DNA from: Alphaproteobacteria bacterium
GTDB taxonomy: Bacteria > Pseudomonadota > Alphaproteobacteria > SHNJ01
DNA length: 64,000 nt
Direction: 5' to 3'
Assembly (NCBI GenBank): GCA_004295055.1
Contig: SHNJ01000031.1
Location: 72,802 to 136,801, forward strand
Under the pieces are notes generated by a model. That model was not told the DNA's origin, did not search any database, and saw nothing but the letters and a program-made list of their open reading frames with translations. Made by a program: the position numbers and the translations under genes. Positions within the stretch are counted from its first letter, which is position 1. Each line of letters starts with the position of its first letter. Positions 4,171 to 21,046 of this stretch are shown here, piece after piece.

Positions 4171-5352
4171 ATGTCAAAAAATATCTATATCGCCGGTGCG
4201 GCGCGTACCCCGATGGGTGGATTTCAAGGTGAATTATCATCGCTGACGGCACCGCAACTGGGCAGTTATGCTATCAAGGCGGCATTGGAACGTTCGGGCA
4301 TAAAATCAGATTCCATCAATGAAGTTCTTATGGGTTGCGTCTTGCCGGCAGGTTTAGGCCAGGCCCCCGCACGGCAAGCATCCATAGGTGCTGGGATTCC
4401 AATCGGTGTTGGATGCACGACAGTGAACAAAGTCTGTGGTTCGGGATTGAAATCGGTGATGCTGGGTTATGATTCGATTTTGGCGGGACATAACGAAGCG
4501 GTGATCGCAGGCGGCATGGAAAGCATGAGTAACGCGCCATATTTGTTGGAAAAAGCGCGCGGTGGATATCGCCTTGGCCATGGAAAAATTGCCGACAGCA
4601 TGTTTTTGGATGGGCTTGAAGATGCCTATGACCGCGGCCGTTTGATGGGCACATTCGCCGAGGATACGGCGCAGCATTATCAATTTACCCGCGCTCAACA
4701 GGATGAATTCGCGCTGCGATCATTAGACCGCGCGCGCAAAGCAGGTATGGACGGCAGTTTTTCCCGTGAGATTGTTTCGATTGTCATGGACAATAAGAAA
4801 GAAAAAATAACCATCAGTTCAGACGAACAGCCACGTAACGCTAAACCGGAAAAAATTCCGACATTGAAACCGGCTTTCCGCGATGGCGGCACGGTAACGG
4901 CGGCCAATTCCAGTTCCATTTCCGATGGGGCTGCCGCGGTAATTGTTTGCAGCGAAGCGCAAATGCAAAAGTCCGGAGCAAAGCCATTGGCGCGGATTGT
5001 CGCCCATGCGACGCATGCGCAAGAACCAGCCTGGTTTACAACCGCGCCGGTATTTGCCATTAAAAAAGTCGCCGAAAAAGCCGGGTGGAATTTAAAAGAC
5101 GTGGATTTGTTTGAAATTAACGAGGCGTTTGCCGTCGTTACCATGGCCGCGCAACATGAATTGAATTTACCTAATGAAAAGGTCAATATTCGTGGCGGCG
5201 CTTGCGCAATGGGCCATCCGATCGGCGCTTCCGGCGCGCGCGTGTTGGTGACACTAATTCATGCGTTGCAAGATATGAAATTGAAACGTGGTATTGCCAG
5301 CCTGTGCATTGGCGGCGGTGAAGCCGTCGCGATGGCCATAGAAACTATTTAG
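4171..5352 (+). CDS. atoB: Acetyl-CoA C-acetyltransferase (thiolase II)
   Basis: 393 aa with thiolase motifs (VNKVCGSGLKSV active-site Cys; C-terminal NIRGGACAMGHPIGASGARVL…CIGGGEAVAMAIE). Confidence 0.85.
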   Translation: MSKNIYIAGAARTPMGGFQGELSSLTAPQLGSYAIKAALERSGIKSDSINEVLMGCVLPAGLGQAPARQASIGAGIPIGVGCTTVNKVCGSGLKSVMLGYDSILAGHNEAVIAGGMESMSNAPYLLEKARGGYRLGHGKIADSMFLDGLEDAYDRGRLMGTFAEDTAQHYQFTRAQQDEFALRSLDRARKAGMDGSFSREIVSIVMDNKKEKITISSDEQPRNAKPEKIPTLKPAFRDGGTVTAANSSSISDGAAAVIVCSEAQMQKSGAKPLARIVAHATHAQEPAWFTTAPVFAIKKVAEKAGWNLKDVDLFEINEAFAVVTMAAQHELNLPNEKVNIRGGACAMGHPIGASGARVLVTLIHALQDMKLKRGIASLCIGGGEAVAMAIETI

Positions 5353-7148
5353 TCTGCCGGGTGTCCTATTTCAGACGCATTTTCAGTGCAATCTGTCTGT
5401 GGTCCGTTTTTCTGCGCAGTTTCGCATACAATTGTACCATCTGCTGGTGCTGATACTACGTCTTGTCCAGCCGGCAATCCAACAGGAGTGTATGTAGTTG
5501 GTCCTGGATCAACAGAAACTATAGTTTTTGCCGCTGGATCCCAATTGTAAGCCCAATTGGCATGATAATTGGCTAGACCGTGCACGCCAGTGTGTAATAA
5601 TTCAGGATATGTCTGGCTGCAATCTGCAGAATTATTAAGCAAAGTTACAGCCGCATCCGTTTTGCAGTTGGCTGAACTGCGTTCCGGATAAGTGTAAGTA
5701 CGGTCCCGCGCTTGCTGCGAGTTCGATGATAAATAGCAGTAAAATTGATTGGTATTTGGGGAATAGCCTACCACTTGGTGGGCTAACGGTCCGTCACCGT
5801 TGGCCAGAGAGCATGACTCTTCCCATCTGCCATAGGTAGTATCGTTCGCATTCACGCCTTCACAGACGAAAGTGTTGCTGGTCGCGGTTGTTGCGTCCCA
5901 AACAATCTTTTTACCTTCAGGGCATGGCGTTGGGCCGTTTGATGGATTTGGCGGTCTGGAATTTAACAATGTCCACCCACCGGCGCAAATTAGACTGCCA
6001 TCCCGCAATATGATCACGCCTTTACTGCGCGTACCGGGAAAATATGGATGATTATCATAATAACGTTGTGGGCATTCAAAATTGGCTAAACGAGTCATAA
6101 TATCATTCGGTAAAGCCGGATTTGGCCAGGTGCCGTCGGCCGCTACCGGAGAGACCGCATCGTAATATTCATCTACCGCGTACATCGATACGATTTGCCG
6201 GTTTACGTTGTCATAGGTCTCTGTGTTGACTTTTGCTTCGCGAATTTCGATGTCGGCACAGCTCATCCCGTTATTGATAGTTCCATCATTATTGGTGCCG
6301 CGCGAATTCAGGGCGGTTCCAACGGTACAATTTTGAGTTTCATTGCTGCCTGGCGCGGCGGCCAATCCCAGAACATTTCTTTCGCAACGGAACCGGGCTG
6401 GCAAAGTTTCCGCGGTATTGCCATCGCCGTCCTCATCGTTGACATCCACAGCTTGAGGTTTGAATATCATTTCTTCGCCGGCAGGACAGGCGCTTTCGCT
6501 AAGCGTGGTATTTTCCGTTTGCGAACTGCGGATCCATTTCAATGCCTGTGCCGGCGTTACATTGATGTATTTGCTGTTATCGCTTGTTACGCCAGCAGCG
6601 GCAGCGCTGCAAGTCATCATATGATCAGGATATTTGTTTAGAATAAGGGTAAATAATATCGGCGGATTGGCGGGTGCTGGAATATACCCATTTGTGCTGC
6701 TATAGCCGGCTTCTACCGGATAATATGGACAATAACGCATATATCTACGCAAGCTATCTGGCCGCAGTGGGGCCATTTGACGCAAGTTTCTCGGCAATTT
6801 ACCGCCATAAGCATAGGTAGGATTATTGCCTTCCAAAAGAGGAGTGGTAATAGTCGCATCGGAAGTAGTATCGCTGTTATCAGGAAATACGGCTGCAATT
6901 GGATGCACTCTCCCGGTGCTGCGGATATTGTCGCTGGAGGCCCGCGCAATGCTAGAAGCCAATACATTCAACAATGTGTCGTCGGTTATTTTCTCAGCAG
7001 ATTGGCGATTATCTTTTAATGCATTAATGTTCGGCGTAAAGATAGCAGCATTGGCCAGCATGATTAGAACGATAAAAAGCAATAAATGCGATACCATCCC
7101 GCGCTGGCGATTTTGAATGTTATGATATGGTTTCATTCTAAATCTCAT
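5349..7148 (-). CDS. Large cysteine-rich secreted or membrane-anchored protein with prepilin-like leader (no Glu+5)
   Basis: 599 aa. N-terminus is a basic leader ending in QRG|M followed by about 20 hydrophobic residues. About 25 Cys and many N-x-T/S. Third gene of a tightly packed three-gene minus-strand array. Confidence 0.55.
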   Translation of the reverse strand: MRFRMKPYHNIQNRQRGMVSHLLLFIVLIMLANAAIFTPNINALKDNRQSAEKITDDTLLNVLASSIARASSDNIRSTGRVHPIAAVFPDNSDTTSDATITTPLLEGNNPTYAYGGKLPRNLRQMAPLRPDSLRRYMRYCPYYPVEAGYSSTNGYIPAPANPPILFTLILNKYPDHMMTCSAAAAGVTSDNSKYINVTPAQALKWIRSSQTENTTLSESACPAGEEMIFKPQAVDVNDEDGDGNTAETLPARFRCERNVLGLAAAPGSNETQNCTVGTALNSRGTNNDGTINNGMSCADIEIREAKVNTETYDNVNRQIVSMYAVDEYYDAVSPVAADGTWPNPALPNDIMTRLANFECPQRYYDNHPYFPGTRSKGVIILRDGSLICAGGWTLLNSRPPNPSNGPTPCPEGKKIVWDATTATSNTFVCEGVNANDTTYGRWEESCSLANGDGPLAHQVVGYSPNTNQFYCYLSSNSQQARDRTYTYPERSSANCKTDAAVTLLNNSADCSQTYPELLHTGVHGLANYHANWAYNWDPAAKTIVSVDPGPTTYTPVGLPAGQDVVSAPADGTIVCETAQKNGPQTDCTENASEIGHPAD

Positions 7149-7152
7149 TCAT

Positions 7153-8694
7153 TTAATCCACTGCTGTGCATGTAAACCGCGGATTCGGATTTGCATCTTT
7201 TATGAAAGTTAACGAACCTCTTTTGCCGTTAATCGGCGGACATGTATTCGCCGGCATGGCAAAACGAAGCGCTTCAAATATATTGATGCATTGTACCAAT
7301 CTGCGATCGTCCACCCGGGCTTGCATGACATTGTTCACGGGGCATCCGTCACTTGTGCTGTAATGCACGGCGGCATCTTCTGCAAACCCGCCGGCCAGCA
7401 CTGGGTCGTTTAAAATGTAACAGCCAAATCCGCCCATGCTGGAAACAAAGCCGACGTCGAATCCCGCTTTGCATACTCTTAATCCGCCAGCTTGCGCATC
7501 TTCCGGACAGAATGTGCGGCCACTGGCGTAGTATGGCGTAATTCCACCGTTGCAAGCTGTGCGCGCTCCGGGGCCGCCATTTCTTGCCAGGTTGGTATTA
7601 TTGAATGGATAACAAGAAGTATAGCGCGATAGCGCCACTGCGAGCCAATTTCCAGCAGAGCAGGTGCTTAGAACCACATTTTCCGGTATGCCGTTGCATA
7701 TCCTTTGTGTTCCCGTCCAGCGGAATGTTTCGATATGATTGGTGCAAGGAGCGGCAGCGGCCATATCGCCGTCAATTAAAGAGGCAATAGCGCCATTTTC
7801 GTCGAAAATCAATCCAAAGTCGGAACGGGCGCGTGGCGCCACGGTAGAAACGCAGGCCAGTTCTTGATACTCATGTTCTGCATCGCCCTCATGCACCAAT
7901 CGCAATGTCAAGGCGGTGCCTTGTGGGCAAGTAGGTATATTTTCCGCGGCGCTGTCGGATTTCAGGAAAAATGCTGGAATAGTGCTTTCCACGCATTCCC
8001 AATTTTTCTGATCGATATTCCATTGTAAATTTGTAAGTTTACGATCTCTGCCCGTTCCTGTAATTCCGCATGTTGGAATGTTCCCGGCGTTTTCGATAAG
8101 ATTTTTGTAAGCATCCCTGTTAACGTCTCTAACGGTTTTAAAAATACCGATATCGTCGCCTCGGGTAATGCCTTGCATAACATCGTTCTTATTGGTGTCT
8201 ATTTGTCCGTCCGCACCGGGAAGAATCATGGCAAAAGACATTTCGTCCGGATTTGGAATGCCGCCTGCGCCAGACAAGTAATAACCGGCCGGAGCATTAT
8301 CCGTGCTTCGCGGCATATGGATGAAAGCGAAATAAGCAACTTCGCCGAATTTGGTGTTGGCGGAGAATCCAGTCGGCAGTTTGCCACCCCACTCTGGATT
8401 TGGCACATCTCCGTCCTGCATCGATCTGCCGCCGGCAGTCGCCGACATCGCCGGCGCCACTTTCATGACGCCTTGTTGATCCAGATTTGATTCCGCAATA
8501 ATACTGGCCAGTTGTTGTAACTTGTTCCGGGCTTGCACGTTTCTTTGCTGATCGATTAGCTTGTCAAAAATGCCGACATAGCTTCCCGCTAATGTAATGG
8601 CGGCCGCGCTGGCCAGCATGCCGAACAGGACCGGCGCGGCTAAGAAGCCTCTCTGGCTGTTTTTTCTGCGAAATATGGTAAACAGTTTCATCAT
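7153..8694 (-). CDS. Large cysteine-rich secreted or membrane-anchored protein with prepilin-like leader; paralog-like of its two neighbours
   Basis: 513 aa. Leader MMKLFTIFRRKNSQRG|FLAAPVLFGMLASAAAITLAG. Cys/Gly/Asn-rich. 4-nt gap to the downstream gene. Confidence 0.55.
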   Translation of the reverse strand: MMKLFTIFRRKNSQRGFLAAPVLFGMLASAAAITLAGSYVGIFDKLIDQQRNVQARNKLQQLASIIAESNLDQQGVMKVAPAMSATAGGRSMQDGDVPNPEWGGKLPTGFSANTKFGEVAYFAFIHMPRSTDNAPAGYYLSGAGGIPNPDEMSFAMILPGADGQIDTNKNDVMQGITRGDDIGIFKTVRDVNRDAYKNLIENAGNIPTCGITGTGRDRKLTNLQWNIDQKNWECVESTIPAFFLKSDSAAENIPTCPQGTALTLRLVHEGDAEHEYQELACVSTVAPRARSDFGLIFDENGAIASLIDGDMAAAAPCTNHIETFRWTGTQRICNGIPENVVLSTCSAGNWLAVALSRYTSCYPFNNTNLARNGGPGARTACNGGITPYYASGRTFCPEDAQAGGLRVCKAGFDVGFVSSMGGFGCYILNDPVLAGGFAEDAAVHYSTSDGCPVNNVMQARVDDRRLVQCINIFEALRFAMPANTCPPINGKRGSLTFIKDANPNPRFTCTAVD

Positions 8695-8705
8695 GTTCTT
8701 TTCAT

Positions 8706-10238
8706 TTACCTATATATACATTTAAATTTCTTGTTGGTTTCATCCCAACTGACCATTTGGTGTCCGTTGCAAGAACTGCTGGGCGTAACTCTTGTCAATA
8801 ATTCAAACCTATCCAGGCATACATAATTGGTGCCGTCGTGCATGATAAAATCACCCGCTCTGCAAGATGTACGGGTATCGCTATATGGAATGATCCAATT
8901 GCGCGGTTCTTGAGTGTTATTGCTTTCCAAACATTGCGTATTGTTAGTAACCGTCTGGAATTCCAATATTTGATTTGGCTGGCAGGTTTGCTTGACCTCG
9001 AAACTTAAGTTCCCGGCAAAACAGAATAATTTTCCGCGATCGAATACGATGTATGGCCGTCCGGAACAATTGCTGCCGCTTAATAAGCTGCTTGGCATGC
9101 CGAGGCAACGCAAGGTGCCATCGCGGCTTTGGTACAAGGCTTTGAATTGTCCGCCGGATGCTTGGAAATCGCAGCTGCTTGCCAACAGCGGAATGGATAA
9201 GCTTACGCTTGGCGGACCAATTTCATCGCCATACGAAGAAAGACGATCACACCGGAAACTGTAATTGTCGTTGGCCACGCTCGATAACGCGCCAATGGCG
9301 TACCCGCGATAACAGATGCCGGCGGCCAAACGGCCCATATTGATATTCTCCGGCACTTGATTGGCCAATTGATCGACAACCCGGCAACCTAAAGTGCCAT
9401 CGGCATTCAAAGCCAGGCGTTGTGAATCCAAACAGCGGCGTAAACCATGCGAAGAATAATCCTGATTCACAAAATTCATGTAATTGTCGCGGCAGTTCCA
9501 GCTATGCTCTCCGGTGGCATTGCCATCGCCATCCTGCACATTGGTGTATTCCAAAGTTTGCAAGGCCGTACAGGTCGGAACGCCGTTATGCAACAAAGCG
9601 CGGCGATTGGCATTGGCGTGTTCCAACACTTCGCCGTATTTGATAAGTCTAATTTGGTCGTCGCTGCCGTTCACGGGGGTTTCATTCAAAGCATAATTGC
9701 AGGTATACTCAGGCGTACCGTTTTGTCCGTAACTGATAATTGCAAATACAGATTGTTTCATAAGCAGCGTTGTATTAGCTTGAACCTCGCGCCGTCCATT
9801 AGCAACATATGGTGGTACTATATCTTGAAGATTGATAGAACAAATTCGGAAGTCTCTACCGTAAGCATCCTTTCCGATGGTATCTCGCAAATCTACTTCT
9901 TGATTGTTAATAGTTGTCAATAGAGGTTCTATAAAACCCATAGCAGATTGTTCCCACTGCTGCGTATCACCTTCTGGATTAGGTTGAGTTTTGGTGTAAT
10001 ACATGCGCGGCAATTCAAGATAACGATCCCCATCAATATTGCTAATCTTGTTAGCAAGAATATATTCCGCTAATCGGTCTATGTTCTTTTTGGTATTTAA
10101 ATCGCTTTGTGTGGTGCCTACTTTCTGCGCAAGGCCAGCGGTCAGCGTGATCAGCGTGCCCAGCATCGCGACCGACGCGACAAGAGTGGCGATATATGCC
10201 CCGCCAATAAAGCCAGATTGTGATTTAAAAATTTGCAC
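8706..10238 (-). CDS. Large cysteine-rich secreted or membrane-anchored protein with prepilin-like leader; first gene of the array
   Basis: 510 aa. Leader MQIFKSQSG|FIGGAYIATLVASVAMLGTLITL. AT-rich promoter-like region upstream (10239-10518). Confidence 0.55.
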   Translation of the reverse strand: MQIFKSQSGFIGGAYIATLVASVAMLGTLITLTAGLAQKVGTTQSDLNTKKNIDRLAEYILANKISNIDGDRYLELPRMYYTKTQPNPEGDTQQWEQSAMGFIEPLLTTINNQEVDLRDTIGKDAYGRDFRICSINLQDIVPPYVANGRREVQANTTLLMKQSVFAIISYGQNGTPEYTCNYALNETPVNGSDDQIRLIKYGEVLEHANANRRALLHNGVPTCTALQTLEYTNVQDGDGNATGEHSWNCRDNYMNFVNQDYSSHGLRRCLDSQRLALNADGTLGCRVVDQLANQVPENINMGRLAAGICYRGYAIGALSSVANDNYSFRCDRLSSYGDEIGPPSVSLSIPLLASSCDFQASGGQFKALYQSRDGTLRCLGMPSSLLSGSNCSGRPYIVFDRGKLFCFAGNLSFEVKQTCQPNQILEFQTVTNNTQCLESNNTQEPRNWIIPYSDTRTSCRAGDFIMHDGTNYVCLDRFELLTRVTPSSSCNGHQMVSWDETNKKFKCIYR

Positions 10239-10518: not shown

Positions 10519-11139
10519 ATGGCGCAAGCAAATTTTGGATTAACCGCTGTTGCAGCTATGGGCGCGGTAACGGCTTTTGGTATTGTGCCAGCCAACGCGG
10601 ATATTTGGCTGCATCAGGGTACCAATAACACTAGTTTTGCCACATCGGAAATGATGACAGGAAATGTTACTGGTGTTCAAGTAAATATATCGGGGGACAA
10701 TTTGTGGGCATTTACGGCTCGTGCAACAAGTCAGTATATTACTGTTACCTCTGGTTTTTCAAACCAACCAGGTATGTTTGCAGGGTTTGACATGTTTAGT
10801 AATCCATTACCAGTAGGTTCTGGTTATAATGACGTGGATCAAACAGGCATAAATATGACTATGAATATTGGTGCTCAGAATGTTGGTCAACTAATTACCC
10901 TAGTTTTTGCTAATTATGGTATGGTTCCACTCAGCAATGGATCGGATTTGTATGACGTTGGAAGCTCTGGACAAATTAATCCATTGTTTATGGGTGCATG
11001 GAATGGCACAGGGGGTCAGAATCAATTTGGCGTCGAAACTCGCGTATACGAAATTACTGGCATTACCGGTGTTCCAGCTCCGGGTGTGTTGACCTTGGCT
11101 ATGGCTGGCGGTTTATTGGCCGCGCGTCGCCGCCGCTAA
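10519..11139 (+). CDS. Secreted protein with PEP-CTERM-like C-terminal sorting tail
   Basis: RBS GGGAGAGAGAAATG. Signal peptide …GIVPANA|D. C-terminus GVPAPGVLTLAMAGGLLAARRRR is a P-x-P, hydrophobic helix, Arg-cluster arrangement. Paralog of 11365-11985. Confidence 0.65.
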   Translation: MAQANFGLTAVAAMGAVTAFGIVPANADIWLHQGTNNTSFATSEMMTGNVTGVQVNISGDNLWAFTARATSQYITVTSGFSNQPGMFAGFDMFSNPLPVGSGYNDVDQTGINMTMNIGAQNVGQLITLVFANYGMVPLSNGSDLYDVGSSGQINPLFMGAWNGTGGQNQFGVETRVYEITGITGVPAPGVLTLAMAGGLLAARRRR

Positions 11140-11195: not shown

Positions 11196-11364
11196 ATGTG
11201 CGCACGAATAATTAATACTATCGTATGATTATAATATAATTATACTAATATGAAATAAAATTAGCAATATAATTGCAAGGATGGCTAAGAATCATTTTGC
11301 CAACCAAATGGTAAGTGGATTATAAATGCTTACTTCAAAAACTACTTTTTTCGTGGAGAGAAAA

Positions 11365-11985
11365 ATGGTCCGAGCAAATTTTGGAATGATTGCCGCCTTT
11401 ACCGCGGCCACCGCTTTCGGCACACAAGCGAATGCAGATATTTGGGAACAACATGGCAGCGACAACACCGCTTTTGCGACATCGGAAAGAATGACCGGCC
11501 GCGAAATTGACGGAATTGAGTACAGTGTTACTGGCGATAATTTATTTGCCTTTACTGGCGTTGCAAATAGTCGATTTATTACCATTATTTCCCCTGCATC
11601 TAACCAGCCTGGTATTGTGTATGTCCTGGACAAAGATGGAAAACCATTTCCAGTAGGTTCAGGTTATAATGACATTACACAAGAGGGCGTCGATATGATT
11701 ATCGATATTGGCGATGCCAATGTCGGTAAAGAAATCACTTTCGTATTTGGTAATTACGGCACGTTGGCGCAAAATGGCGAAACTCCGCTTTTTAATGATT
11801 ACGAATGCGGCCAAATCGATCCAGATGTGGTTGCGACATGGACTCTGACTGGTGGTCAAAATCAATTTGGTTCCGAAACTCGTGTTTGTTTCTTCGGCGA
11901 GGGAGAAGTTCGCGGTGTGCCAAAAGTAAGCACCACGACGGCGACGGCAGCAGCAAGAGCCAGAGCCACGCGCTGTTGCGACTAA
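11365..11985 (+). CDS. Secreted paralog of 10519-11139 with degenerate (Thr/Ala-rich) C-terminal tail
   Basis: Start moved to MVRANFG… (RBS GGAGAGAAAAATG, matching its paralog). Shared blocks are ANFG…TAFG…ANADIW, PVGSGYND and TGGQNQFG.ETRV. C-terminus is VPKVSTTTATAAARARATRCCD. Confidence 0.6.
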   Translation: MVRANFGMIAAFTAATAFGTQANADIWEQHGSDNTAFATSERMTGREIDGIEYSVTGDNLFAFTGVANSRFITIISPASNQPGIVYVLDKDGKPFPVGSGYNDITQEGVDMIIDIGDANVGKEITFVFGNYGTLAQNGETPLFNDYECGQIDPDVVATWTLTGGQNQFGSETRVCFFGEGEVRGVPKVSTTTATAAARARATRCCD

Positions 11986-12000
11986 CAATTAGATAGAATA

Positions 12001-12034
12001 AAAAAAGCCCGGTTTAATCCGGGCTTTTTTATTG
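12001..12034. terminator. Bidirectional rho-independent terminator
   Basis: AAAAAAA-GCCCGG-TTTAAT-CCGGGC-TTTTTTATT. It lies between two convergent genes (11365-11985 on + and 12048-12428 on -). Confidence 0.75.
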
Positions 12035-12047
12035 GGAGTATTTAACC

Positions 12048-12428
12048 TTAGCTTTCATAATTATCATTCGCGAACATGGCGGCGACGCCCGCACCGAAAT
12101 GATTTTCGATGCGGTAATATTGAATTTCCCGGTCGTTAAAATAATTTTGTTTTTTTAGCAAATTTTGCAGCAACGATTGCTTGCGGCGGTATTCGCGGTA
12201 CGCCTTGGCGATCAGGCGCGGGATCGCCTCGGAAATATCGACGATGTTTTTCGCGCCGAATCCCGCAACCGGCATTTCCGCTTGCCACATTCTGTAATGC
12301 CGCAAAGTTTGCAACATCCAATACCGCAGCAATTGAATCTCAGCGCGCATGGCGCAAATCAGCATTTTTGTCTGGCGCGGATTGGCGGGTACAAAATAAA
12401 AACCCGGCCCGGCGAATTCTTGGTTCAT
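12048..12428 (-). CDS. Small protein of unknown function; paralog A of 14172-14540
   Basis: 126 aa with RBS AGGGAGAGC. The C-terminal 43 aa and about 150 nt are near-identical to 14172-14540 (…[47 protein letters not shown]). Transcribed divergently from an XRE regulator. Confidence 0.6.
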   Translation of the reverse strand: MNQEFAGPGFYFVPANPRQTKMLICAMRAEIQLLRYWMLQTLRHYRMWQAEMPVAGFGAKNIVDISEAIPRLIAKAYREYRRKQSLLQNLLKKQNYFNDREIQYYRIENHFGAGVAAMFANDNYES

Positions 12429-12606
12429 AAAAAGCTCTCCCTAAATATTAATTTTTGTTGGTTACGAGGGGTAAAATAGGCCTAAATGGTTAATGAATGG
12501 TTAATTTATAGATAGAAATCATAAAAAATATTACTAATATTCATTTTTTTTATGATTTATCTTGATAATGGGATTCAGGCCTTCTAAAACAAAGCAGGGT
12601 AAGACT
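12429..12606. promoter_or_regulatory. Divergent AT-rich promoter region with GGTTAAT direct repeats (candidate operator)
   Basis: TGGTTAATGAATGGTTAAT at 12487-12505 lies between divergent genes. An analogous GGTTAAT…GTTAAT is in the paralogous region 14754-14772. Confidence 0.35.
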
Positions 12607-13251
12607 ATGACTTTGGATGCTTCTCAAATCCGCGCCGCACGCGCCTTGTTGGACTGGACAATCGAAGATTTGGCCAAAATTACCGGCTTGAGCAAGGATT
12701 CCATCAAAAATGTAGAGCGTGGGCATACTCAACCCCGTATAAATACCCGAATTGTTATAGAAGAAGCTTTTGAAAAAGCAGGCATCGAATTTTTGCCGGG
12801 TTCTGGCGTGCGCAAGAAAAATAATTTAATAACGACCTTAACCGGCGAATACGCCAATCGGCAATTGCTGGATGATGTGTATGCAACCCTTGTGGCTCGG
12901 GAAAATGCGTGTGTCTATATTACCGGCGTCAAGGAAACACAAAGCATCGATAGTGTGGATTATGAATATTTGGAAAAACATATTCAACGCTTATTGAAAG
13001 CGAATATTAAAGAAAAATTGATTGTTGAAGAAGGCGATTCCACTTTTATAGCGCCTTCATACAGCTATCGGTGGATAGCAGAACAATATTTTGAGAATGT
13101 ACCCATCCAAGTTTATGGCGATAAAATCGCCTTTGTGGATTGGGGGCCGCCGGAGCAAATCGTTATCATTCAAAACAAAGGATTTGCCATGGCTATGCAG
13201 AAACTGCTGGATTTCGCATGGCAAAACTGCGCCGTGCCTAAAGGCTTGTAA
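12607..13251 (+). CDS. XRE-family helix-turn-helix transcriptional regulator with uncharacterised C-terminal domain
   Basis: Start set to MTLDASQIRAARALLDWTIEDLAKITGLSKDSIKNVERG (HTH). Same length as, and colinear with, paralog 14937-15584 (conserved EEGD…YRW…VY.DK.A). Confidence 0.6.
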   Translation: MTLDASQIRAARALLDWTIEDLAKITGLSKDSIKNVERGHTQPRINTRIVIEEAFEKAGIEFLPGSGVRKKNNLITTLTGEYANRQLLDDVYATLVARENACVYITGVKETQSIDSVDYEYLEKHIQRLLKANIKEKLIVEEGDSTFIAPSYSYRWIAEQYFENVPIQVYGDKIAFVDWGPPEQIVIIQNKGFAMAMQKLLDFAWQNCAVPKGL

Positions 13252-13252
13252 A

Positions 13253-14119
13253 ATGATGCATATATCCGGAAAGCTAAAGCAAATCGTATCCTTAGGGCCA
13301 GAAAATTTCGACTTTCTGAAAGCGGCCAATAACAACGACAGTTATCAATTGTCGCCTACATATTATTTGTTTACCGGAAGAAAAGGTTTATGGGTGTTGG
13401 AACAGGATGGGCAAGCGGCTTTAATTGCTAAGCATCCTAACTTAGAAGACGAATTGTTGGTATTTTATCCTAATGGATATTGCCCAAATCTAGAGCATCA
13501 AGTTTTACATCATGTTCCGCGTAACAGCCGATTAAAAGCTGCAAGACTAGCCGTTTGCGCAAATTCTAATCTCAATGCAGTTATGGATGAGGAACTATTC
13601 TTAGATTGGCGTTACCCAGTCTGCATACTGGATACTGCGTATGTTGGAAAACTGCGCGGCAGGTTATTAGAGGATGTAAAGAACAATTATAATAGAGCCG
13701 CTAGAACGATTTGTAGAATTGAGGCTTACAATCCGGCTGCGCATAAAGATCGCATGAGAGAATTGATTCAACAATGGCATCGCCCGGAAGCGCATGATGG
13801 ATATGAAGGGCTATTAAATATTATGGAACGAATGCCGGGAAATTTCGGCTTAATCGCTCTAACAGAAGAATCTATCGCGGGGTTTATTCACTGGGAAATG
13901 CCATGGAAACCGGGGAGTCCGGCTAATTCTCTGGCCTTGATTGTTGACAAAAGCATTAAAGGATTAAGCGAATTTATGATGGTGGAAATGTGCCGCGCGT
14001 TGGTGCAGACCGGATGCCTTGCTGTCAATATAGGTGGGTCTGAAACCGAAAGCCTTCATTATTTTAAAAGCAAATTTAATCCAAAAATGGTGGATCTGCG
14101 TAATTATAATTATGCTTAA
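13253..14119 (+). CDS. Stand-alone DUF2156 / phosphatidylglycerol-lysyltransferase C-terminal-like (FemXAB/GNAT-fold) protein; putative aminoacyl-tRNA-dependent transferase
   Basis: Start re-set to the ATG 1 nt after the regulator stop (MMHISGKLKQ…); the track's 13091 start overlaps the regulator. C-terminal signature …GSETESLHYFKSKFNPKMVDL matches the FK.KF.P motif that ends MprF C-domains. Confidence 0.5.
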   Translation: MMHISGKLKQIVSLGPENFDFLKAANNNDSYQLSPTYYLFTGRKGLWVLEQDGQAALIAKHPNLEDELLVFYPNGYCPNLEHQVLHHVPRNSRLKAARLAVCANSNLNAVMDEELFLDWRYPVCILDTAYVGKLRGRLLEDVKNNYNRAARTICRIEAYNPAAHKDRMRELIQQWHRPEAHDGYEGLLNIMERMPGNFGLIALTEESIAGFIHWEMPWKPGSPANSLALIVDKSIKGLSEFMMVEMCRALVQTGCLAVNIGGSETESLHYFKSKFNPKMVDLRNYNYA

Positions 14120-14171
14120 AGATTAATACTTTTTAAGTAGTACAATGCGCGGCGAGGCAGCTAATATGGCG

Positions 14172-14540
14172 TTAGGCATAATTATCGTTCGCGAACATGG
14201 CGGCGACGCCCGCGCCGAAATGATTTTCGATGCGGTAATATTGAATTTCCCGGTCGTTAAAATAATTTTGTTTTTTTAGCAAATTCTGCAACAACGATTG
14301 CTTGCGGCGGTATTCGCGCAACGATTGGTTGATCAATCCCTGCACTTTGCTTTGCATATTGGCGATTTTTTTTGCCGGCAATGCGCCGTCATTGTTCATT
14401 TCCGCGCGCCAGGATTTATAATTCTGCAAAGTTTGCAGCATCCAATAACGTAGCAAGCGGATTTCCGCTTCCATCGCCTCGGCTAAATTTTGACTTTTGC
14501 CTTTGGTGTTGGCATTGGTTTTATTTTGTTGTGCTGGCAT
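14172..14540 (-). CDS. Small protein of unknown function; paralog B of 12048-12428
   Basis: 122 aa with RBS AAGGGAG. C-terminus identical to paralog A. Preceded on the same strand by a 47-aa ORF. Confidence 0.6.
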   Translation of the reverse strand: MPAQQNKTNANTKGKSQNLAEAMEAEIRLLRYWMLQTLQNYKSWRAEMNNDGALPAKKIANMQSKVQGLINQSLREYRRKQSLLQNLLKKQNYFNDREIQYYRIENHFGAGVAAMFANDNYA

Positions 14541-14560
14541 ATCTCGCTCCCTTAACTCCG

Positions 14561-14704
14561 TTAGGCCGCTTTTTGTACTTTGCGCATTTCTTCAACTACG
14601 TTCAGCGCAAAATAGGGGCCATATTTAATTTCCAAATACTCATAAATTTCTTCTTCGCTCATCATCGCGTAATTTGGTTTGGTATTTTGATTCGCGTAAT
14701 CCAT
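14561..14704 (-). CDS. Small ORF (47 aa) not in the supplied track: MDYANQNTKPNYAMMSEEEIYEYLEIKYGPYFALNVVEEMRKVQKAA
   Basis: Read by hand on the minus strand. ATG at 14704, stop TAA at 14561-14563. It ends 20 nt before the RBS and ATG of 14172-14540, an operon-like spacing. Acidic/aromatic, no signal peptide. Confidence 0.35.
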   Translation of the reverse strand: MDYANQNTKPNYAMMSEEEIYEYLEIKYGPYFALNVVEEMRKVQKAA

Positions 14705-14710
14705 CTCTAG

Positions 14711-14936
14711 TCCCTTAGTTCCCGTTGTTGGCAACGAGAGAATAGGATCATAAGGTTAATCAAAAGTTAATTCAATAGAAAAAATATCTAATAACGATAT
14801 ATTTTATGCCTTTTATAGATGGTATTATACACAAATTATTGATATATAATGATAATATTCCATCCAGAAAAATAAAAAATGACGATATTTTTTATATGTT
14901 CTTGCAATATGTTTTATATCTTGTTATGCAGAAAAC
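14711..14936. promoter_or_regulatory. Divergent AT-rich promoter region with GGTTAAT-N6-GTTAAT repeat (candidate operator)
   Basis: GGTTAATCAAAAGTTAATT at 14754-14772. Same position relative to the regulator gene as in cassette 1. Confidence 0.35.
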
Positions 14937-15584
14937 ATGATAGACGCCAAACAAATACGCGCCGCGCGCGCTTTGCTGAATTGGTCGCGGGAGGAGCTGG
15001 CCGAACAAACGGGGATTTCCGTCCCCGCGCTTGCTCGCGCCGAAACGGGCGAATCGCAATTGCGCACGACTAGCGCCGAGAAAATCAAATCATCGTTGGA
15101 GCAGGCGGGTGTAATTTTTACGGATGGCAGTGGTGTGAAGCTCAAAACGGATTTGGTACAAATTTATGAAGGTGAAAATTGCTATCTAAAATTGCTGGAA
15201 GATTTTGAAGACCTGAATGTTAAAGGAGAAAAAGAAATTCTGTTCAGTTCTGCTTCTGAAAAAAGATCAACGGATGAGGTTATTGAGAAAACGCGTCTTC
15301 TAAGAAAAAAAGGCATTAAGATGCGCTTTCTTTTGGAGGAAGGCGACACATACATAATGGGTGACCTTTCAGAATATAGATGGATGCATAAAAGTTTATT
15401 TTCCAAGGGTGACGTAAAGCTAGTGTATGCGGATAAAGTCGCTTATTTGGTTAGTTGGATGGAAACACCTCGTGTTGTAGTTGTTTCTGAGAAAAACATT
15501 GCTGAAGAAAATCGAAGAGCGTTTGAATTTATTTGGAATATATCGAAGAAACCGACGCACAGCGATGCGGACATTTCATATTGA
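14937..15584 (+). CDS. XRE-family HTH transcriptional regulator; paralog of 12607-13251
   Basis: MIDAKQIRAARALLNWSREELAEQTGISVPALARAETG HTH. C-terminal domain colinear with its paralog. Confidence 0.6.
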   Translation: MIDAKQIRAARALLNWSREELAEQTGISVPALARAETGESQLRTTSAEKIKSSLEQAGVIFTDGSGVKLKTDLVQIYEGENCYLKLLEDFEDLNVKGEKEILFSSASEKRSTDEVIEKTRLLRKKGIKMRFLLEEGDTYIMGDLSEYRWMHKSLFSKGDVKLVYADKVAYLVSWMETPRVVVVSEKNIAEENRRAFEFIWNISKKPTHSDADISY

Positions 15585-15592
15585 GGCGCAGA

Positions 15593-16309
15593 ATGTTCGA
15601 AATCAAAATTAAAACGTCAAAAAATCAAATCGCCTTATATAATCGCTGTGTATTGGGCGTAAGTCTAGATAGCAATAATCACAGAGGTGATCGTCTGGCG
15701 GCATTGGTAGAATGGGCTAATGATAATTTTAAAGATTGCATCGTCGATCTTACCGATACTTTGCATCGGTATAATCACATGGCGGATCTAAAATTGTCGG
15801 AAAACGATGCCAGATTGAAAGCCCATATTCAGGGCGATCAGTGGCTGCAAGAATCATATCACATATTATCCAATTTCAAGATTCCATATTGCATTCTGCG
15901 GTGGGATGCATGGAAATATAATCATAAGTTTATAAGGTATCTGCATATGTTTGAAAGCGCATTCGCGGTCGATAAAAATTTCCGTGAAGCTGTTATGTAT
16001 GATGTTAATTTATTTTTAGGCAGAAGAAAAGCTCTTGGCAGTCCAACCACGGAGCAATTATGCGTTACCTATTTATTGGAAGAACTTGCTGGTCAATCCT
16101 TATTGTATGAACAATTTCCAGCTGCTGAGATTTATCCGGGTAAACAACAAAAAAGCTTTGGATTAGTGCGTGCTGGGAAAGTGCCTAATGTGCCAACTGG
16201 TTTGCAGAATTCCTGTTTTGTAAGCCTGTATCTGCATGACAAGAGTGCGGGGTTATTTGGTTCCGCCAATGACGATGCAGATTTTGCTGATTTAAGAAAA
16301 ATGGGTTGA
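15593..16309 (+). CDS. Cyclodipeptide synthase (CDPS)-like tRNA-dependent enzyme
   Basis: Start set to the ATG 9 nt after the regulator stop (MFEIKIKT…, 238 aa). Motifs colinear with AlbC-type CDPS are: LGVSLDSNN (the G-x-S catalytic-Ser loop); LVEWANDNF…IVDLTDT (compare LLQWAGQRF…VVYVDT); TYLLEE (the Y…E pair); and SLYLHD (the late Tyr). Confidence 0.65.
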   Translation: MFEIKIKTSKNQIALYNRCVLGVSLDSNNHRGDRLAALVEWANDNFKDCIVDLTDTLHRYNHMADLKLSENDARLKAHIQGDQWLQESYHILSNFKIPYCILRWDAWKYNHKFIRYLHMFESAFAVDKNFREAVMYDVNLFLGRRKALGSPTTEQLCVTYLLEELAGQSLLYEQFPAAEIYPGKQQKSFGLVRAGKVPNVPTGLQNSCFVSLYLHDKSAGLFGSANDDADFADLRKMG

Positions 16310-16464
16310 TACTTCTGAAACCTTGATTTCAAAGCCTGAACACACTCCTATCCATATATTTCTCCACATATTGCCCCGCACTCTAAATCTCCTTGGAATC
16401 CGGCTTATTTTAAGGCATCTTAAGGGCCGCTTTCCTATATCCAGCCCTTATCCCGATTACCCGC

Positions 16465-18072
16465 ATGAAAACCTTATCCAGCCAGATCAATACAAAATCC
16501 GAAGATTTCAAAACCAACGCCGCGCATATGCAATCGCAGATTGACGATATGAACGAAAAACTGGCGCGGATTCAGCTGGGCGGATCCGAAGACGCGCGCA
16601 AAAAACATACTGCGCGCGGCAAATTACTCACGCGTGACCGGATCAATCATTTGCTCGATCCCGGCTCGGCATTTTTAGAATTCAGCGCCTTTGCCGGATA
16701 TAATATGTACGAAGATGATGTGCCCGCCGCCAGTATCATTACCGGCATTGGCCGCGTCAATGGCCAGGAATCGGTCGTCATCGCCAACGATCCGACGGTT
16801 AAGGGCGGAACCTATTACCCGATGACGGTGAAAAAACATTTGCGGGCGCAAGACATCGCCGCGCAAAACAACTTGCCTTGCATTTATCTGGTCGATTCGG
16901 GCGGCGCGTTTTTGCCGATGCAGGATGACGTGTTTCCAGACCGCGATCATTTCGGCCGTATTTTTTATAACCAGGCGCGCATGTCTTCCCGACGTATTCC
17001 GCAAATAGCGGTGGTGATGGGTTCTTGCACCGCAGGCGGCGCCTATGTTCCCGCCATGTCGGACGAAGTGGTGATTGTTAAAAACCAAGGGACTATTTTC
17101 CTGGGCGGCCCGCCACTGGTCAAGGCCGCGACGGGCGAGGTTGTTACGGCGGAGGATCTGGGCGGCGCGGACGTGCATTGCCGCACGTCGGGCGTTGCCG
17201 ATCATATGGCGGATCATGATCGTCATGCGCTGGAAATCACCCGCAATATTGTTGGCAATCTAAACCGTTCGCCGCAAACCAAATTAAATCGTATCTCGCC
17301 GGAATTGCCGAAATACGATCCGGCGGAATTGGTTGGCATTATTCCCAAAGACACGCGCAAGCCGTTCGATATCCGCGAAATCATTGCGCGTATCGTCGAT
17401 GGCAGCCGGTTCGATGAATTCAAGGCGCTGTATGGCACGACCATCGTTTGCGGATTTTCCTATATCATGGGTATGCCGGTCGGTATTATCGCCAACAACG
17501 GCATTCTGTTTTCCGAAGCCGCGTTAAAGGCGACGCATTTTATTGAATTATGCAGTCAGCGCGGAATTCCATTGGTGTTCCTGCAAAATATCACCGGATT
17601 CATGGTTGGCCGCAAATATGAAAATGACGGCATCGCCAAAGATGGCGCGAAAATGGTGACCGCAGTGTCTTGCGCCAATGTGCCGAAATTTACCGTGCTG
17701 ATTGGCGGATCGTTCGGCGCTGGCAATTATGGAATGTGCGGGCGGGCCTTTAACCCGAATTTATTATGGATGTGGCCGAATTCGCGGATTTCCGTTATGG
17801 GCGGCGAACAAGCGGCGAATGTGTTATGGCAGATCCGCGCGGACAGGGCAGAGGCCGAAGGCAAAAAACCAACCGCCGCCGAAGCCGAGCAATTCAAATC
17901 GCCAATCCGCCAGCAATATGAAAATCAAGGCCATCCTTATTATGCTTCCGCGCGTTTGTGGGACGACGGTATTTTATCGCCAACCGACACGCGCATGGCG
18001 TTGTCGATGGGAATTTCAGCCTCGCTGAACGCTCAGTGGGACGATACACGATTCGGCGTATTTAGAATGTAG
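16465..18072 (+). CDS. mccB: Methylcrotonyl-CoA carboxylase carboxyltransferase (beta) subunit
   Basis: 535 aa acyl-CoA carboxyltransferase fold (two crotonase-like halves). Adjacent to liuC, mccA and hmgL. Confidence 0.8.
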
Positions 18073-18081
18073 GAGATTGCG

Positions 18082-18876
18082 ATGACCAATTCCGTTTTAA
18101 TTTCCAAAGATTCCCCCGGCATTGCCACCATTACGATGAACAAGCCGGATGTGCACAATGCATTTGATGAAAGTTTAATTGCCGATCTTACAAAGGCGGT
18201 AAAACAATTGAATGCCGATTCGGATGTGCGGGTCGTCATTCTGGCCGCGAATGGCAAAAGTTTTTCGGCCGGCGCGGATTTGGGCTGGATGCAAAAGATG
18301 TCCGGTTATTCGGAAGAAGAAAATCTGCGCGATGCACGGTTGCTGGCCGAATTAATGTCGTCGTTGGACCAAATGACCAAACCCACGATTGCGCGCGTTC
18401 AGGGATCGGCGTTTGGCGGCGGCGTTGGGCTGATCGCTTGCTGCGATATTGCGGTATCGGTTTATGATGCCAAATTTGCATTGTCCGAGGCGCGTTTAGG
18501 CCTTATTCCGGCGGTGATTTCGCCTTATGTGGTATCGGCCATCGGTGCGCGCAATGCGCGGCGTTATTTCTTAACCGGTGAACGATTTGATGCAGAACGC
18601 GCATTGGATATGGGGCTTGCGCATCAATTATGTTATGCGGATGAACTCGATAGCGCGGTCGAAGAAATTGTCGATGCGTTATTGGAATGCGGACCCGGCG
18701 CGCAAACGGCATGCAAATATTTAATCCGCCAGGTGCAGTCGGGCAAAAACAATTCTGAATTGATCGAATGGACGGCGCAGCAAATCGCCAAAATCCGCGC
18801 CAGCCACGAAGGCAAGGAAGGCATTTCCGCATTCTTGGAAAAACGCGCGCCAAAATGGTTGAAAAAACGGGCGTAG
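18082..18876 (+). CDS. liuC: Methylglutaconyl-CoA hydratase (enoyl-CoA hydratase/crotonase family)
   Basis: 264 aa crotonase fold (…SFSAGADLGWM…GSAFGGGVGLIACCDIAV…). Position between mccB and mccA. Confidence 0.75.
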   Translation: MTNSVLISKDSPGIATITMNKPDVHNAFDESLIADLTKAVKQLNADSDVRVVILAANGKSFSAGADLGWMQKMSGYSEEENLRDARLLAELMSSLDQMTKPTIARVQGSAFGGGVGLIACCDIAVSVYDAKFALSEARLGLIPAVISPYVVSAIGARNARRYFLTGERFDAERALDMGLAHQLCYADELDSAVEEIVDALLECGPGAQTACKYLIRQVQSGKNNSELIEWTAQQIAKIRASHEGKEGISAFLEKRAPKWLKKRA

Positions 18877-18886
18877 TATTTAAATC

Positions 18887-21046
18887 CTATTTACTAGGCC
18901 TAGAAGACTGCATGCGTTTTACCCGGGCCATATGTTCTGCCCTGGTGCCGCGTATAAGGCTATCGATAGTGCTGGTATAACGGGCCGTAAACTTTTGGGG
19001 ATCGGGAGTGTAGTATAAGCCATTTCTATTGGCTAACGCCGCGATTTTGCCTAGATCGCAGGTTTCCGCGAAAGGCTCTTCCAAAAAAGCTTGTATTGAT
19101 GCGATAGACCTCATTTCCAAAGACATTTGCAGCAATTTCGCAAGTACTGCTAAAGAAGCCAGGCTATGTTCCGAATAGGCAGTAAGTTGGGGCCGTCTCA
19201 TCTGCTGGGGTATTAGAATTTGTTCCATGCAATCGTATAAATCCATCACCGCATCCTTGTTAGGTGCAGGCGCGAATATTTGCTGTAAAACATGTCTCGG
19301 AATTGCATAGCCTTTCGGTACAACCCAATTTTCCAGCGACCAGGAAGAAATAGAAGCATTGGCGCGGTCAATTTCTTCCCGGTTGTGGGCTTGACCTGTA
19401 ATCTGCGCGTGTGCCAGGGAAACTGTGCGATAAGTTCTTCTGTAAATAGGTTTCAGCGCTGTCTGGATGCAAACGTCAACACTGTACTTTAGTACAAGAT
19501 ACAAAAACTTCATTTGTCTATCGCTAACGCAGACTCCGTATCCGGACGCTTTGGCCGCTGCACATAAATCATTGAATTGTATCGGTGCGGAAAAGGGCCT
19601 TGCGGCGTGTGCCGCGAAACTGTCAGGTCCATGGGGATCGAATGTCATAAGACGATACGCCATCGCCCAATCTTCTATACTGAAGGATAAAGGAAACTGA
19701 GTATGTTTATGGCTATATATATTTGCAAACCCATGCGGGAAAAAGGCGAGCGCAATGGCGTGGGCTGCCGTCACGATAGCGTTGTCTTTACCCTTGATAA
19801 GGTTTTCTAAATAGGATGATCGGATAAAAAAACCCGGCGGAATTGCTAAACCCGGTACCAAAGTTTGCGCCAATGGAATGTATTGCGTTGGAAATGGCTT
19901 GCGCAAGTCGGCAAAAGGATCGGTGGCTGGATCTTCGGCCAGATGGATATCGATATCGTATAACAGCACCCGTTCTTTCGGCAGAACATCTTTGATGAGC
20001 GGCATTTTTGGCGCATCCAAGGGGGGTGTGGCGGCTTGGATGATTGCGGTGGGCAGGGCCGGTTGCGCTATATCCGCGCGCTGCGCCTGGTGTTGATACA
20101 AACCGTGCGCTTCCAAGATTGCGCGCATGTTTTTGCGCAGCAAATGTTTTACTTTTCCGAATGCTTCACCCACATCGCTGTCGGCCGTTATTCCGGTGAT
20201 TTGACGCAAAGCTTTGGCGCGGATGTCGATAATGGTTGTATCCCGGCGATAAGGTTGAGCAAAGTTTTTTTGATCCGGGCGGATTCCAAATTCCAATATC
20301 TTGTCCAGGATAGCCAATTCTGTCGGGCTGAAAACTGGTCTCGCACCCAAGCGCAATATACCGGCCAATTCTTGCATCAATTGATTGATACTATTCCAAT
20401 ATCCACTATGGTTTTCGTATTCCATGGGCGGCAACAATAATAACCCGGTTAATGCCAGGGCATAGCCGGTTTCCGCTTGTTGGCGCGCCTCGGGTGTAGA
20501 AAGATCGGCTAAATCGTACCCGCGCAATCGCAACCCGATGGGAATAGTGGGGCAGGATTTATCATGTGTCGTAAGTTCATTCAGAACAGGCAAATGAATA
20601 TGGCGGTCGACAGCAGTGGCTGGTTCAGGTTCTTCGGCATCGGTCAGATTCACGAATCCGAGGCCGGATAGAAAATCCGTCCGTGTTTTTCCGATTTCCA
20701 GAAGATCCCTGTATTTCTTCAGATCAAATTTTTCAGCAGTGTCGGCGGTGATATAACCGGTAACGGCTAAGGCGATTGCGAAATTTTTCAACGCGCCAGG
20801 ATCTACAATGGTAATACGTCCGCCTTTGGGGTGGTATTTCGTCAGAACAATTCCATTGGTATCATAAACCTTAAAATTATGGCCATCGCGCACATGCTGG
20901 AAACCCAATCCAACGCATAGTTTTTCAAATTGCGCCTGGTCGATTTCCGTTACGCTGCTGCGGGAGAAAATAGCCGTTAACAGGCCGCGTTGGCCGTCGC
21001 CCAAACCGGCAATAACGGCATGATCGATTGGTGTTATTCTTGTCAT
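18887..21046 (-). CDS. Large hypothetical protein (719 aa) with HicA/YcfA-like N-terminal region; inserted inside the liu cluster
   Basis: No global family recognised. Residues about 40-95 (LGFQHVRDGHNFKVYDTNGIVLTKYHPKGGRITIVDPGALKNFAIAL) follow the HicA pattern GF..vR..GsHh.f…g..vtvP.H.gk.l..gtl..Il. Confidence 0.45.
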   Translation of the reverse strand: MTRITPIDHAVIAGLGDGQRGLLTAIFSRSSVTEIDQAQFEKLCVGLGFQHVRDGHNFKVYDTNGIVLTKYHPKGGRITIVDPGALKNFAIALAVTGYITADTAEKFDLKKYRDLLEIGKTRTDFLSGLGFVNLTDAEEPEPATAVDRHIHLPVLNELTTHDKSCPTIPIGLRLRGYDLADLSTPEARQQAETGYALALTGLLLLPPMEYENHSGYWNSINQLMQELAGILRLGARPVFSPTELAILDKILEFGIRPDQKNFAQPYRRDTTIIDIRAKALRQITGITADSDVGEAFGKVKHLLRKNMRAILEAHGLYQHQAQRADIAQPALPTAIIQAATPPLDAPKMPLIKDVLPKERVLLYDIDIHLAEDPATDPFADLRKPFPTQYIPLAQTLVPGLAIPPGFFIRSSYLENLIKGKDNAIVTAAHAIALAFFPHGFANIYSHKHTQFPLSFSIEDWAMAYRLMTFDPHGPDSFAAHAARPFSAPIQFNDLCAAAKASGYGVCVSDRQMKFLYLVLKYSVDVCIQTALKPIYRRTYRTVSLAHAQITGQAHNREEIDRANASISSWSLENWVVPKGYAIPRHVLQQIFAPAPNKDAVMDLYDCMEQILIPQQMRRPQLTAYSEHSLASLAVLAKLLQMSLEMRSIASIQAFLEEPFAETCDLGKIAALANRNGLYYTPDPQKFTARYTSTIDSLIRGTRAEHMARVKRMQSSRPSK

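Follow-up and report, generated by a model that had tools for sequence, protein, structure and literature searches.

What plain cyclodipeptides do for the bacteria that produce them, and whether dedicated receptors for such molecules exist, are long-standing questions. Both are raised by a locus in a 64,000-nucleotide stretch of an alphaproteobacterial genome (contig SHNJ01000031.1, positions 72,802 to 136,801; hereafter the window), where a gene for a cyclodipeptide synthase (CDPS) directly follows a gene for an XRE-family regulator. An initial annotation, made from the sequence alone, had proposed the CDPS in an open reading frame (ORF) at 15593-16309 of the forward strand, and this ORF, encoding 238 amino acids (aa) from an ATG start, is present as described. 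Taken alone, the enzyme is ordinary, but the cassette in which it lies has an architecture that is real and apparently undescribed, from which we infer a function. Specifically, the CDPS is inherited together with the putative sensor half of the regulator, which suggests a dedicated receptor for the small cyclic peptide that the enzyme would produce.

The cyclodipeptide synthase

Both CDPS family models recognise the ORF above their curated thresholds, in agreement with the initial annotation: Pfam PF16715 at 36.3 bits (gathering score 27) and TIGR04539 at 62.5 bits (cut-off 45). When the translation was compared with the PDB using phmmer, its best relative was the Fluoribacter dumoffii CDPS (5OCD, E 3.5e-17), and the Nocardia brasiliensis CDPS and BcmA were also retrieved. 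By these sequence scores, the resemblance to CDPSs is far beyond chance. An exhaustive profile search yielded 2045 cluster representatives at E <= 0.001, 182 of them at E <= 1e-30, and the nearest database relatives are ~45% identical to the query. An alternative TTG start at 15533, which would give a 258-aa protein overlapping the XRE gene, was rejected, as all homologues align from the Met1 of the ATG form. Of note, the NCBI record of the identical protein already carries the name 'tRNA-dependent cyclodipeptide synthase'. The identification itself is not new: the public annotation is correct, and the gene encodes an uncharacterised member of a well-known enzyme family.

The predicted fold agrees with this identity. 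An AlphaFold model built from five sequences reached a predicted local distance difference test score (pLDDT) of 87 and a predicted template-modelling score (pTM) of 0.83, and when it was compared with the PDB using Foldseek, the best 50 of 51 matches (E <= 0.001) were all CDPS chains, sharing with the model a Rossmann-like fold of the class-Ic aminoacyl-tRNA synthetase type. Among the matches listed, the top ones were the XYP-subfamily enzymes 5ocd, 5mlq, 9j61 and 5mlp (E 2.7e-16 to 1.9e-12, template-modelling (TM) scores 0.73-0.87), and the NYH-subfamily enzymes YvmC, Rv2275 and AlbC ranked far lower. The Pfam and TIGR alignments end at residue ~165, and the C-terminal part beyond them aligns to the XYP structures and folds confidently in the model. 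Neither of the two outcomes that the initial annotation had named as refuting it, a family score below noise or a different fold, was thus obtained.

We next consider the catalytic residues, using a MAFFT alignment of 141 sequences (140 clade members plus AlbC of Streptomyces noursei). The AlbC sequence used carries S37, N40, Y128, Y178, E182, Y202 and H203 at their published numbers. In line with the initial annotation, the block CVLGVSLDSNNHRGDRLAALVEWANDNFKDCIVDLTDT aligns gap-free to AlbC residues 32-69 (ALIGISAGNSYFSQKNTVMLLQWAGQRFERTDVVYVDT), placing Ser24 (99% conserved in the clade) on the catalytic Ser37, and TYLLEE carries the equivalents of Tyr178 and Glu182, namely Tyr160 and Glu164, the latter kept in 99% of the 140 clade members. 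The late tyrosine had been assigned to SLYLHD, and here the initial annotation was mistaken: SLYLHD occupies residues 213-218, in the final beta-strand, which the model places at 207-216, and both clade conservation and the alignments to XYP structures exclude it. The position of AlbC Tyr202/His203 is instead taken by Tyr181-Pro182 in AAEIYPG (99% and 94% conserved), and HMMER alignments to 5ocd, 5mlq and 9j61 set the late tyrosine at the same EIYPG motif. The position of AlbC Asn40 is occupied by Ser27, where the clade varies between S, N and Q.

With Ser27 where AlbC has Asn40, and with Tyr181-Pro182, the enzyme falls in the XYP subfamily as defined in the literature (PMC5816076, PMC11580168); the same Ser27 and Pro182 exclude the NYH assignment. 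AlbC, an NYH enzyme, thus shares the fold and the catalytic Ser, Tyr and Glu of the query but differs at Asn40 and His203, and its fold match is much weaker (Foldseek E 2.5e-6, TM 0.57). The solved XYP enzymes (5OCD, 5MLQ, BcmA 9J61 and the Rickettsiella grylli CDPS 5MLP) are the best matches in sequence and fold and bear the same XYP signature, yet are only 20-25% identical to the query, whose clade is distinguished by a conserved C-terminal block, LVRAGKVPNVPTGLQNS, and by pocket motifs of its own. Taken together, alignments and model support an intact XYP-subfamily CDPS, which by predicted fold and sequence alike falls within the CDPSs and the XYP subfamily and outside the NYH subfamily.

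The regulator and its exchangeable C-domain

The regulator gene, of the same strand, ends at 15584 and the CDPS ATG starts at the 9th base beyond (an 8-nt spacer, GGCGCAGA), which matches the 9-nt distance given initially. A GAGG overlaps the XRE stop codon 6 nt before the CDPS ATG, making translational coupling of the two genes plausible. Co-transcription, as also suggested initially, is consistent with the short spacer, the lack of an intervening terminator and the conservation of the pair in every related locus. In all six of the loci collected by CDPS similarity (L003-L008, from Micavibrio, Pseudobdellovibrionaceae and other alphaproteobacterial metagenome-assembled genomes (MAGs)), a full-length XRE homologue (39-54% identity) lies directly upstream on the same strand. 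Moreover, every sampled XRE homologue at least 36% identical to ours precedes a CDPS, except for two in the genome L011 discussed below.

The regulator consists of a helix-turn-helix (HTH) domain and an alpha/beta C-terminal domain (C-domain). While all 47 members of the regulator family match PF01381 (HTH_3), no Pfam model covers the C-domain in any of them, and the 47-sequence alignment gave no match at E <= 1 to PF11495 or to the models of the phospholipase D (PLD) clan. The HxK(x)4D motif of catalytic PLD/Nuc nucleases is absent, a lone match in one of 28 sequences recurring in no other; the invariant residues of the family are G79, Y147, R148 and W200. The C-domain is catalytically dead and PLD-like, and also resembles the archaeal regulators TrmB/TrmBL2. 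TrmB-family proteins combine a DNA-binding domain with an effector-binding domain, PF11495 (PMC4158304). Our regulator differs from them in its XRE/Cro-type rather than winged HTH, in lacking a PF11495 match, in being bacterial and in its pairing with a single enzyme gene. It may nevertheless work like a TrmB-type one-component sensor, though by sequence it belongs neither to the TrmB family nor to the catalytic PLD families.

The window holds two tandem cassettes, an XRE gene followed by an LPG_synthase_C-like gene and the XRE-CDPS pair, each preceded by divergent small ORFs. A syntenic genome, L011 (GCA_964647725.1), shares the small ORFs (orthologues 68-84% identical) and, on the downstream side, the carboxylase/hydratase genes (DNA 86% identical), but both of its enzyme slots are filled by Methyltransf_33 (EgtD-like) genes. 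DNA homology between the window and L011 extends over 12241-12812, 14182-15173 and 16385-18884, and none was found over 12813-14181 and 15174-16384. The left breakpoints fall at about XRE codons 68-79, that is, at the junction of HTH and C-domain. Accordingly, the CDPS-linked regulator and the protein at the corresponding position in L011 share 90% identity over the HTH and 18% over the C-domain, whereas against CDPS-linked regulators of other taxa the values are 30-42% for the HTH and 31-53% for the C-domain. These comparisons show, at the level of aligned DNA and protein, that C-domain and enzyme form a single unit of inheritance and exchange, while the HTH and the control region stay with the chromosomal locus.

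This pattern extends across the regulator family. A metagenome scan, for which two search patterns were used, provided ~35 further full-length members, most with a co-directional gene within about 30 nt; the partner types are listed in Table 1, and the remaining partners encode proteins without a Pfam match. Among 28 regulator-enzyme pairs, C-domain identity was 45.1% where the partner type was the same and 23.4% where it differed (p <= 0.0002 by label permutation), whereas the corresponding values for the HTH were 41.7% and 44.3% (p = 0.90), and HTHs up to 92% identical accompany different payloads. Similarly, in 11 non-redundant CDPS-linked pairs the divergence of the CDPS followed that of the C-domain (Spearman 0.73; Mantel r = 0.79, p = 0.0006) and was uncorrelated with that of the HTH (Spearman -0.22; Mantel p = 0.28). 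By these sequence measures, the C-domain tracks the partner enzyme across the family and the HTH does not. That C-domains group by CDPS partner and co-diverge with it argues for long-term functional coupling rather than accidental linkage.

Several loci of the family differ in detail. In L008, a long-read MAG, the XRE and CDPS genes are each split into two frames (5296-6662), reflecting either a decaying cassette or sequencing frameshifts. In L009 (5399-6012) and L016 (5374-5981), the XRE-CDPS pair is followed by two ORFs of ~101-103 aa without a Pfam match, 66-72% identical between the loci, which may be extra cassette components of one CDPS sub-lineage. Finally, some family members adjoin relaxase, Fic or ArdC-like genes (L019 1-4849, L014 1-8693), suggesting carriage on plasmids or integrative elements.

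Likely product, proposed function and rival explanations

To approach the product, we mapped the substrate pockets by the published AlbC positions (P1: 33, 35, 65, 67, 119, 185, 186, 200; P2: 152, 155, 156, 159, 204, 206, 207), which gave VGDTWGQE for P1 and DLFRGQQ for P2, in agreement with the pocket numbering given for BcmA. The same mapping on clade member P0015, which is 100% identical to CDPS 27, returned the motifs published for that enzyme, CGDSWAHV/DKFRGQH. CDPS 27, of Micavibrio aeruginosavorus EPB (WP_015467885), is listed in supplementary file 7 of Gondry 2018 (PMC5816076, after Jacques 2015) with cyclo(Gly-Asn) (cGN) as its sole detected product. It belongs to the same XYP clade (36% identity over 210 aa), of which it is the only characterised member and thus the nearest characterised relative of the query. 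Both enzymes have Ser at position X40 and the Tyr-Pro pair. Of the seven P2 residues five agree, and P1 has Gly at position 2, Asp at 3 and Trp at 5 in both, but its other five of eight positions (1, 4, 6, 7 and 8) differ, the T/S change at position 4 being conservative; for this reason the product cannot safely be transferred. Our best guess from the pocket residues is a small polar cyclodipeptide related to cGN; that it is exactly cGN we rather doubt. As a proxy for the genomic context of CDPS 27 we used the locus of a 50%-identical relative in a Micavibrio MAG (L005), and it carries the same XRE partner upstream.

Among the neighbouring genes we found no oxidase, P450, methyltransferase or other tailoring gene. 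Upstream of the cassette lie orphan ORFs without a Pfam match, and the cassette is followed by genes for carboxyltransferase, enoyl-CoA hydratase, biotin carboxylase and an HMG-CoA-lyase-like protein, interpreted here as a leucine-catabolism (liu-type) operon. Thus, unlike AlbC, which acts with the tailoring oxidase AlbA/B, the enzyme has no such counterpart nearby, and the plain cyclodipeptide is probably the end product. By the mechanism established for CDPSs, a first aminoacyl-tRNA places its aminoacyl group in P1, from which it is moved to the catalytic Ser. Here it would be transferred to Ser24, a second aminoacyl-tRNA (P2) would then yield a dipeptidyl-enzyme, and this would cyclise to a 2,5-diketopiperazine aided by Tyr160, Glu164 and Tyr181.

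The explanation that we favour, as slightly more likely than not, is an XYP CDPS in a cassette with a cognate sensor-regulator, the function being proposed from the architecture. As to the sensor itself, the C-domain is possibly, though we would stop short of probably, the part that recognises the product of the enzyme. Binding of the product by the C-domain would change HTH occupancy at AT-rich repeats of the conserved divergent promoter. The control region between the XRE gene and the divergent 47-aa ORF is more conserved against L011 (94%) than the flanking coding DNA (76-86%), and contains ACGATAT(A)TTTT at about 14794 and 14881 as well as an inverted pair at 14775-14788 / 14884-14897; these repeats are candidate operators, as is the palindrome before the sister XRE gene (12506-12568). 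The outcome would be autoinduction or feedback, a signal synthase paired with its receptor in the logic of LuxI/LuxR. Like LuxI/LuxR and AfsA/ArpA, the cassette would link a small-molecule enzyme to a ligand-responsive factor, with specificity co-evolving in pairs. The analogy would be a functional one: the protein families are unrelated, exchange here cuts the regulator gene at a domain boundary, and signalling is proposed on the basis of architecture.

Several points weigh against this explanation. The product prediction is weak, given the P1 differences from CDPS 27. Co-inheritance of C-domain and enzyme is equally expected from mutual binding of the two proteins or from recombination favouring the HTH-coding DNA. 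A sigma-70 promoter and terminator scan of 11900-16600 gave nothing above shuffled expectation. One of the two metagenome search patterns lies in the CDPS-type C-domain, the permutation and Mantel tests ignore phylogenetic non-independence, and the GNAT-linked and Methyltransf_33-linked C-domains are loosely grouped (27-28% identity within type).

Mutual binding would be the basis of a toxin-antitoxin (TA)-like or enzyme-inhibitor pair, in which the C-domain binds and neutralises the enzyme, the complex autoregulates the operon, and freed enzymes act on the aminoacyl-tRNA pool. The cassettes indeed resemble type II TA systems with XRE antitoxins in their regulator-first order, tight coupling (8-nt spacer, 1-nt spacer or 4-nt overlaps) and domain shuffling, as C-domain and enzyme are co-inherited and the DNA-binding domain is exchanged as in modular antitoxins. 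They also resemble them in location: the tandem, variable cassettes lie in a low-GC island (34-46% in the cassette region, 50-56% in flanking core genes), and some copies of the family adjoin relaxase or Fic genes. Several of the partner families, moreover, use aminoacyl-tRNA (CDPS, LPG_synthase_C, Fmt-like proteins and GNAT toxins). We nonetheless consider this reading unlikely. The regulator, unlike type II antitoxins, is large (215 aa, in two domains), and its globular domain also bears a resemblance to TrmB/TrmBL2; its partners are ordinary biosynthetic enzymes, of which the EgtD-like and class-I methyltransferases and the ATP-grasp proteins have no obvious toxic target. PADLOC and NCBIfam matched only at the level of the HTH, all below cut-offs, and beyond generic HTH models PADLOC gave no defence-system match. 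For CDPSs, CDPS 27 included, non-toxic over-expression in E. coli is also routine in the analysis of products (PMC5816076).

Recombination at the HTH leads to another improbable account, that of an ordinary pathway-specific repressor whose C-domain senses some other cue, such as a substrate amino acid or stress, the joint exchange being a by-product. Between the paralogous cassettes, conservation is highest in the HTH-coding DNA (repeat D4, 72% over 54 nt), which could serve as a recombination arm, and the loose grouping of the GNAT- and Methyltransf_33-linked C-domains would fit as well. However, CDPS-linked C-domains of distant taxa are 24-100% identical to one another and at most 29% to those of other types, and their divergence follows that of the CDPS, as described above. 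Far less probable still is a protein that retains the CDPS fold but has ceased to make cyclodipeptides, be it an inactive relic or an enzyme of other aminoacyl-tRNA-dependent chemistry. Such a protein could account for family-model matches that stop at residue ~165 and for the unusual acidic P1 residues Asp52 and Glu179, and about one in ten tested CDPSs, e.g., Micavibrio CDPS 35, is inactive in E. coli; yet the enzyme keeps every catalytic residue, each of them conserved, its C-terminal part can be aligned to XYP structures and is confidently modelled, and a clade member with the same P1 Asp makes cGN.

The constant pairing of this CDPS clade with a regulator whose putative sensor domain diverges and is swapped along with the enzyme makes the product-receptor relation directly testable, reduced to two small proteins and a DNA fragment of 230 bp. 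At least seven enzyme families are preceded by the same regulator scaffold, suggesting a general, overlooked cassette design. A broader extension, in our view possible but doubtful, is that proteins with an XRE-HTH and a dead PLD-like domain form a widespread, undescribed receptor family for amino-acid-derived small molecules, each made by the enzyme encoded behind it; candidate ligands could be cyclodipeptides, N-acyl, N-formyl and N-methyl amino acids, and dipeptides. They would then be a new class of synthase-receptor (quorum-sensing-like) pairs, with sensor domain and synthase plugged in together behind a fixed DNA-binding domain and operator, and CDPS products would gain their first dedicated receptor. 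Our literature search, which covered Micavibrio as well, found in the library searched no prior description linking a CDPS to an XRE-type or dedicated receptor-like regulator. In a global survey of CDPS clusters, PAS domains were the sole hint of signalling noted (PMC5767969), and a Vibrio review describes the biosynthetic route even of cyclo(Phe-Pro) as unknown (PMC6622552).

The sister cassette and neighbouring features

Table 1. Features of the locus, and partner genes found behind related regulators in metagenome loci
Feature	Position or loci	Strand	Remarks
Predicted XYP-subfamily CDPS	15593..16309	+	238 aa, ATG start; Ser24, Tyr160, Glu164, Tyr181-Pro182; P1 VGDTWGQE, P2 DLFRGQQ
XRE-family regulator	14937..15584	+	215 aa; HTH_3 + alpha/beta C-domain
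HTH_3 domain of regulator	residues 1-57, about 14937-15107	+	PF01381, 34.5 bits vs 23
C-domain of regulator	residues ~74-205, about 15156-15551	+	PLD-like fold, also matches TrmB/TrmBL2, without HKD motif
Exchangeable payload (regulator C-domain + CDPS)	15174..16384	+	No DNA homology to L011, which has another C-domain + Methyltransf_33
Divergent control region, 47-aa ORF to XRE gene	14705..14936	.	~230 bp; 94% identical to L011
47-aa ORF divergent from XRE gene	14561..14704	-	L011 orthologue 84% identical
122-aa ORF	14172..14540	-	Paralogue of 12048-12428 (69%, last 47 aa identical); L011 orthologue 68% identical
Sister-cassette enzyme, LPG_synthase_C/DUF2156-like	13253..14119	+	288 aa; PF09924, 40.9 bits; start 1 nt past XRE stop
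Sister-cassette XRE regulator	12607..13251	+	214 aa from ATG; same architecture; HTH 80%, C-domain 30% identical to L011 copy
AT-rich palindrome upstream of sister XRE	12506..12568	.	31-nt arms, 77% complementary; kept in L011
126-aa ORF divergent from sister XRE	12048..12428	-	Paralogue of 14172-14540; orthologue in L011
CDPS partners	L021, L022, L024		
Methyltransf_33 partners	L028, L038		
GNAT acetyltransferase partners	L030, L041, L043		
Formyl_trans_N partners	L040, L050, L053, L057		
Class-I methyltransferase partners	L042, L055		
YheCD-like ATP-grasp partners	L044, L046		

The sister cassette (12607-14119) lies 2.3 kb upstream, and its XRE protein is 34% identical to the CDPS-linked one. 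As the LPG_synthase_C family comprises aminoacyl-tRNA-dependent transferases, both payloads of the window fall in aminoacyl-tRNA-using families; a sequence search of the PDB with the LPG_synthase_C-like protein gave no real match. The palindrome named above as a candidate operator of this cassette is flanked by the 126-aa ORF and the sister XRE gene. Pfam gave no match to the small divergent ORFs, nor did Pfam combined with NCBIfam yield anything above threshold. They were also considered as a universal third component of the cassette and rejected as such, being conserved only in the sister genome, with unrelated small ORFs in other lineages. A 159-nt direct repeat (12056-12214 / 14177-14335, 93% identical) gives the 126-aa and 122-aa ORFs identical 47-aa C-termini amid a less similar remainder, which suggests gene conversion between the two cassettes.

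Further upstream, three consecutive ORFs of 599, 513 and 510 aa occupy 5349-10238 on the reverse strand, with no Pfam match and no mutual BLASTP similarity. The adjacent ORFs 10519-11139 and 11326-11985, also without a Pfam match, are paralogues (47% identity) and weakly resemble (27%) a 211-aa L011 ORF with a PEP-CTERM-like end that lies between the two L011 cassettes. Downstream of the CDPS, a 719-aa orphan ORF without a Pfam match (18887-21046, reverse strand) separates the enoyl-CoA hydratase gene from that for biotin carboxylase. L011 lacks this ORF and has the two genes in direct succession, hydratase first; the ORF looks like an insertion into the operon.
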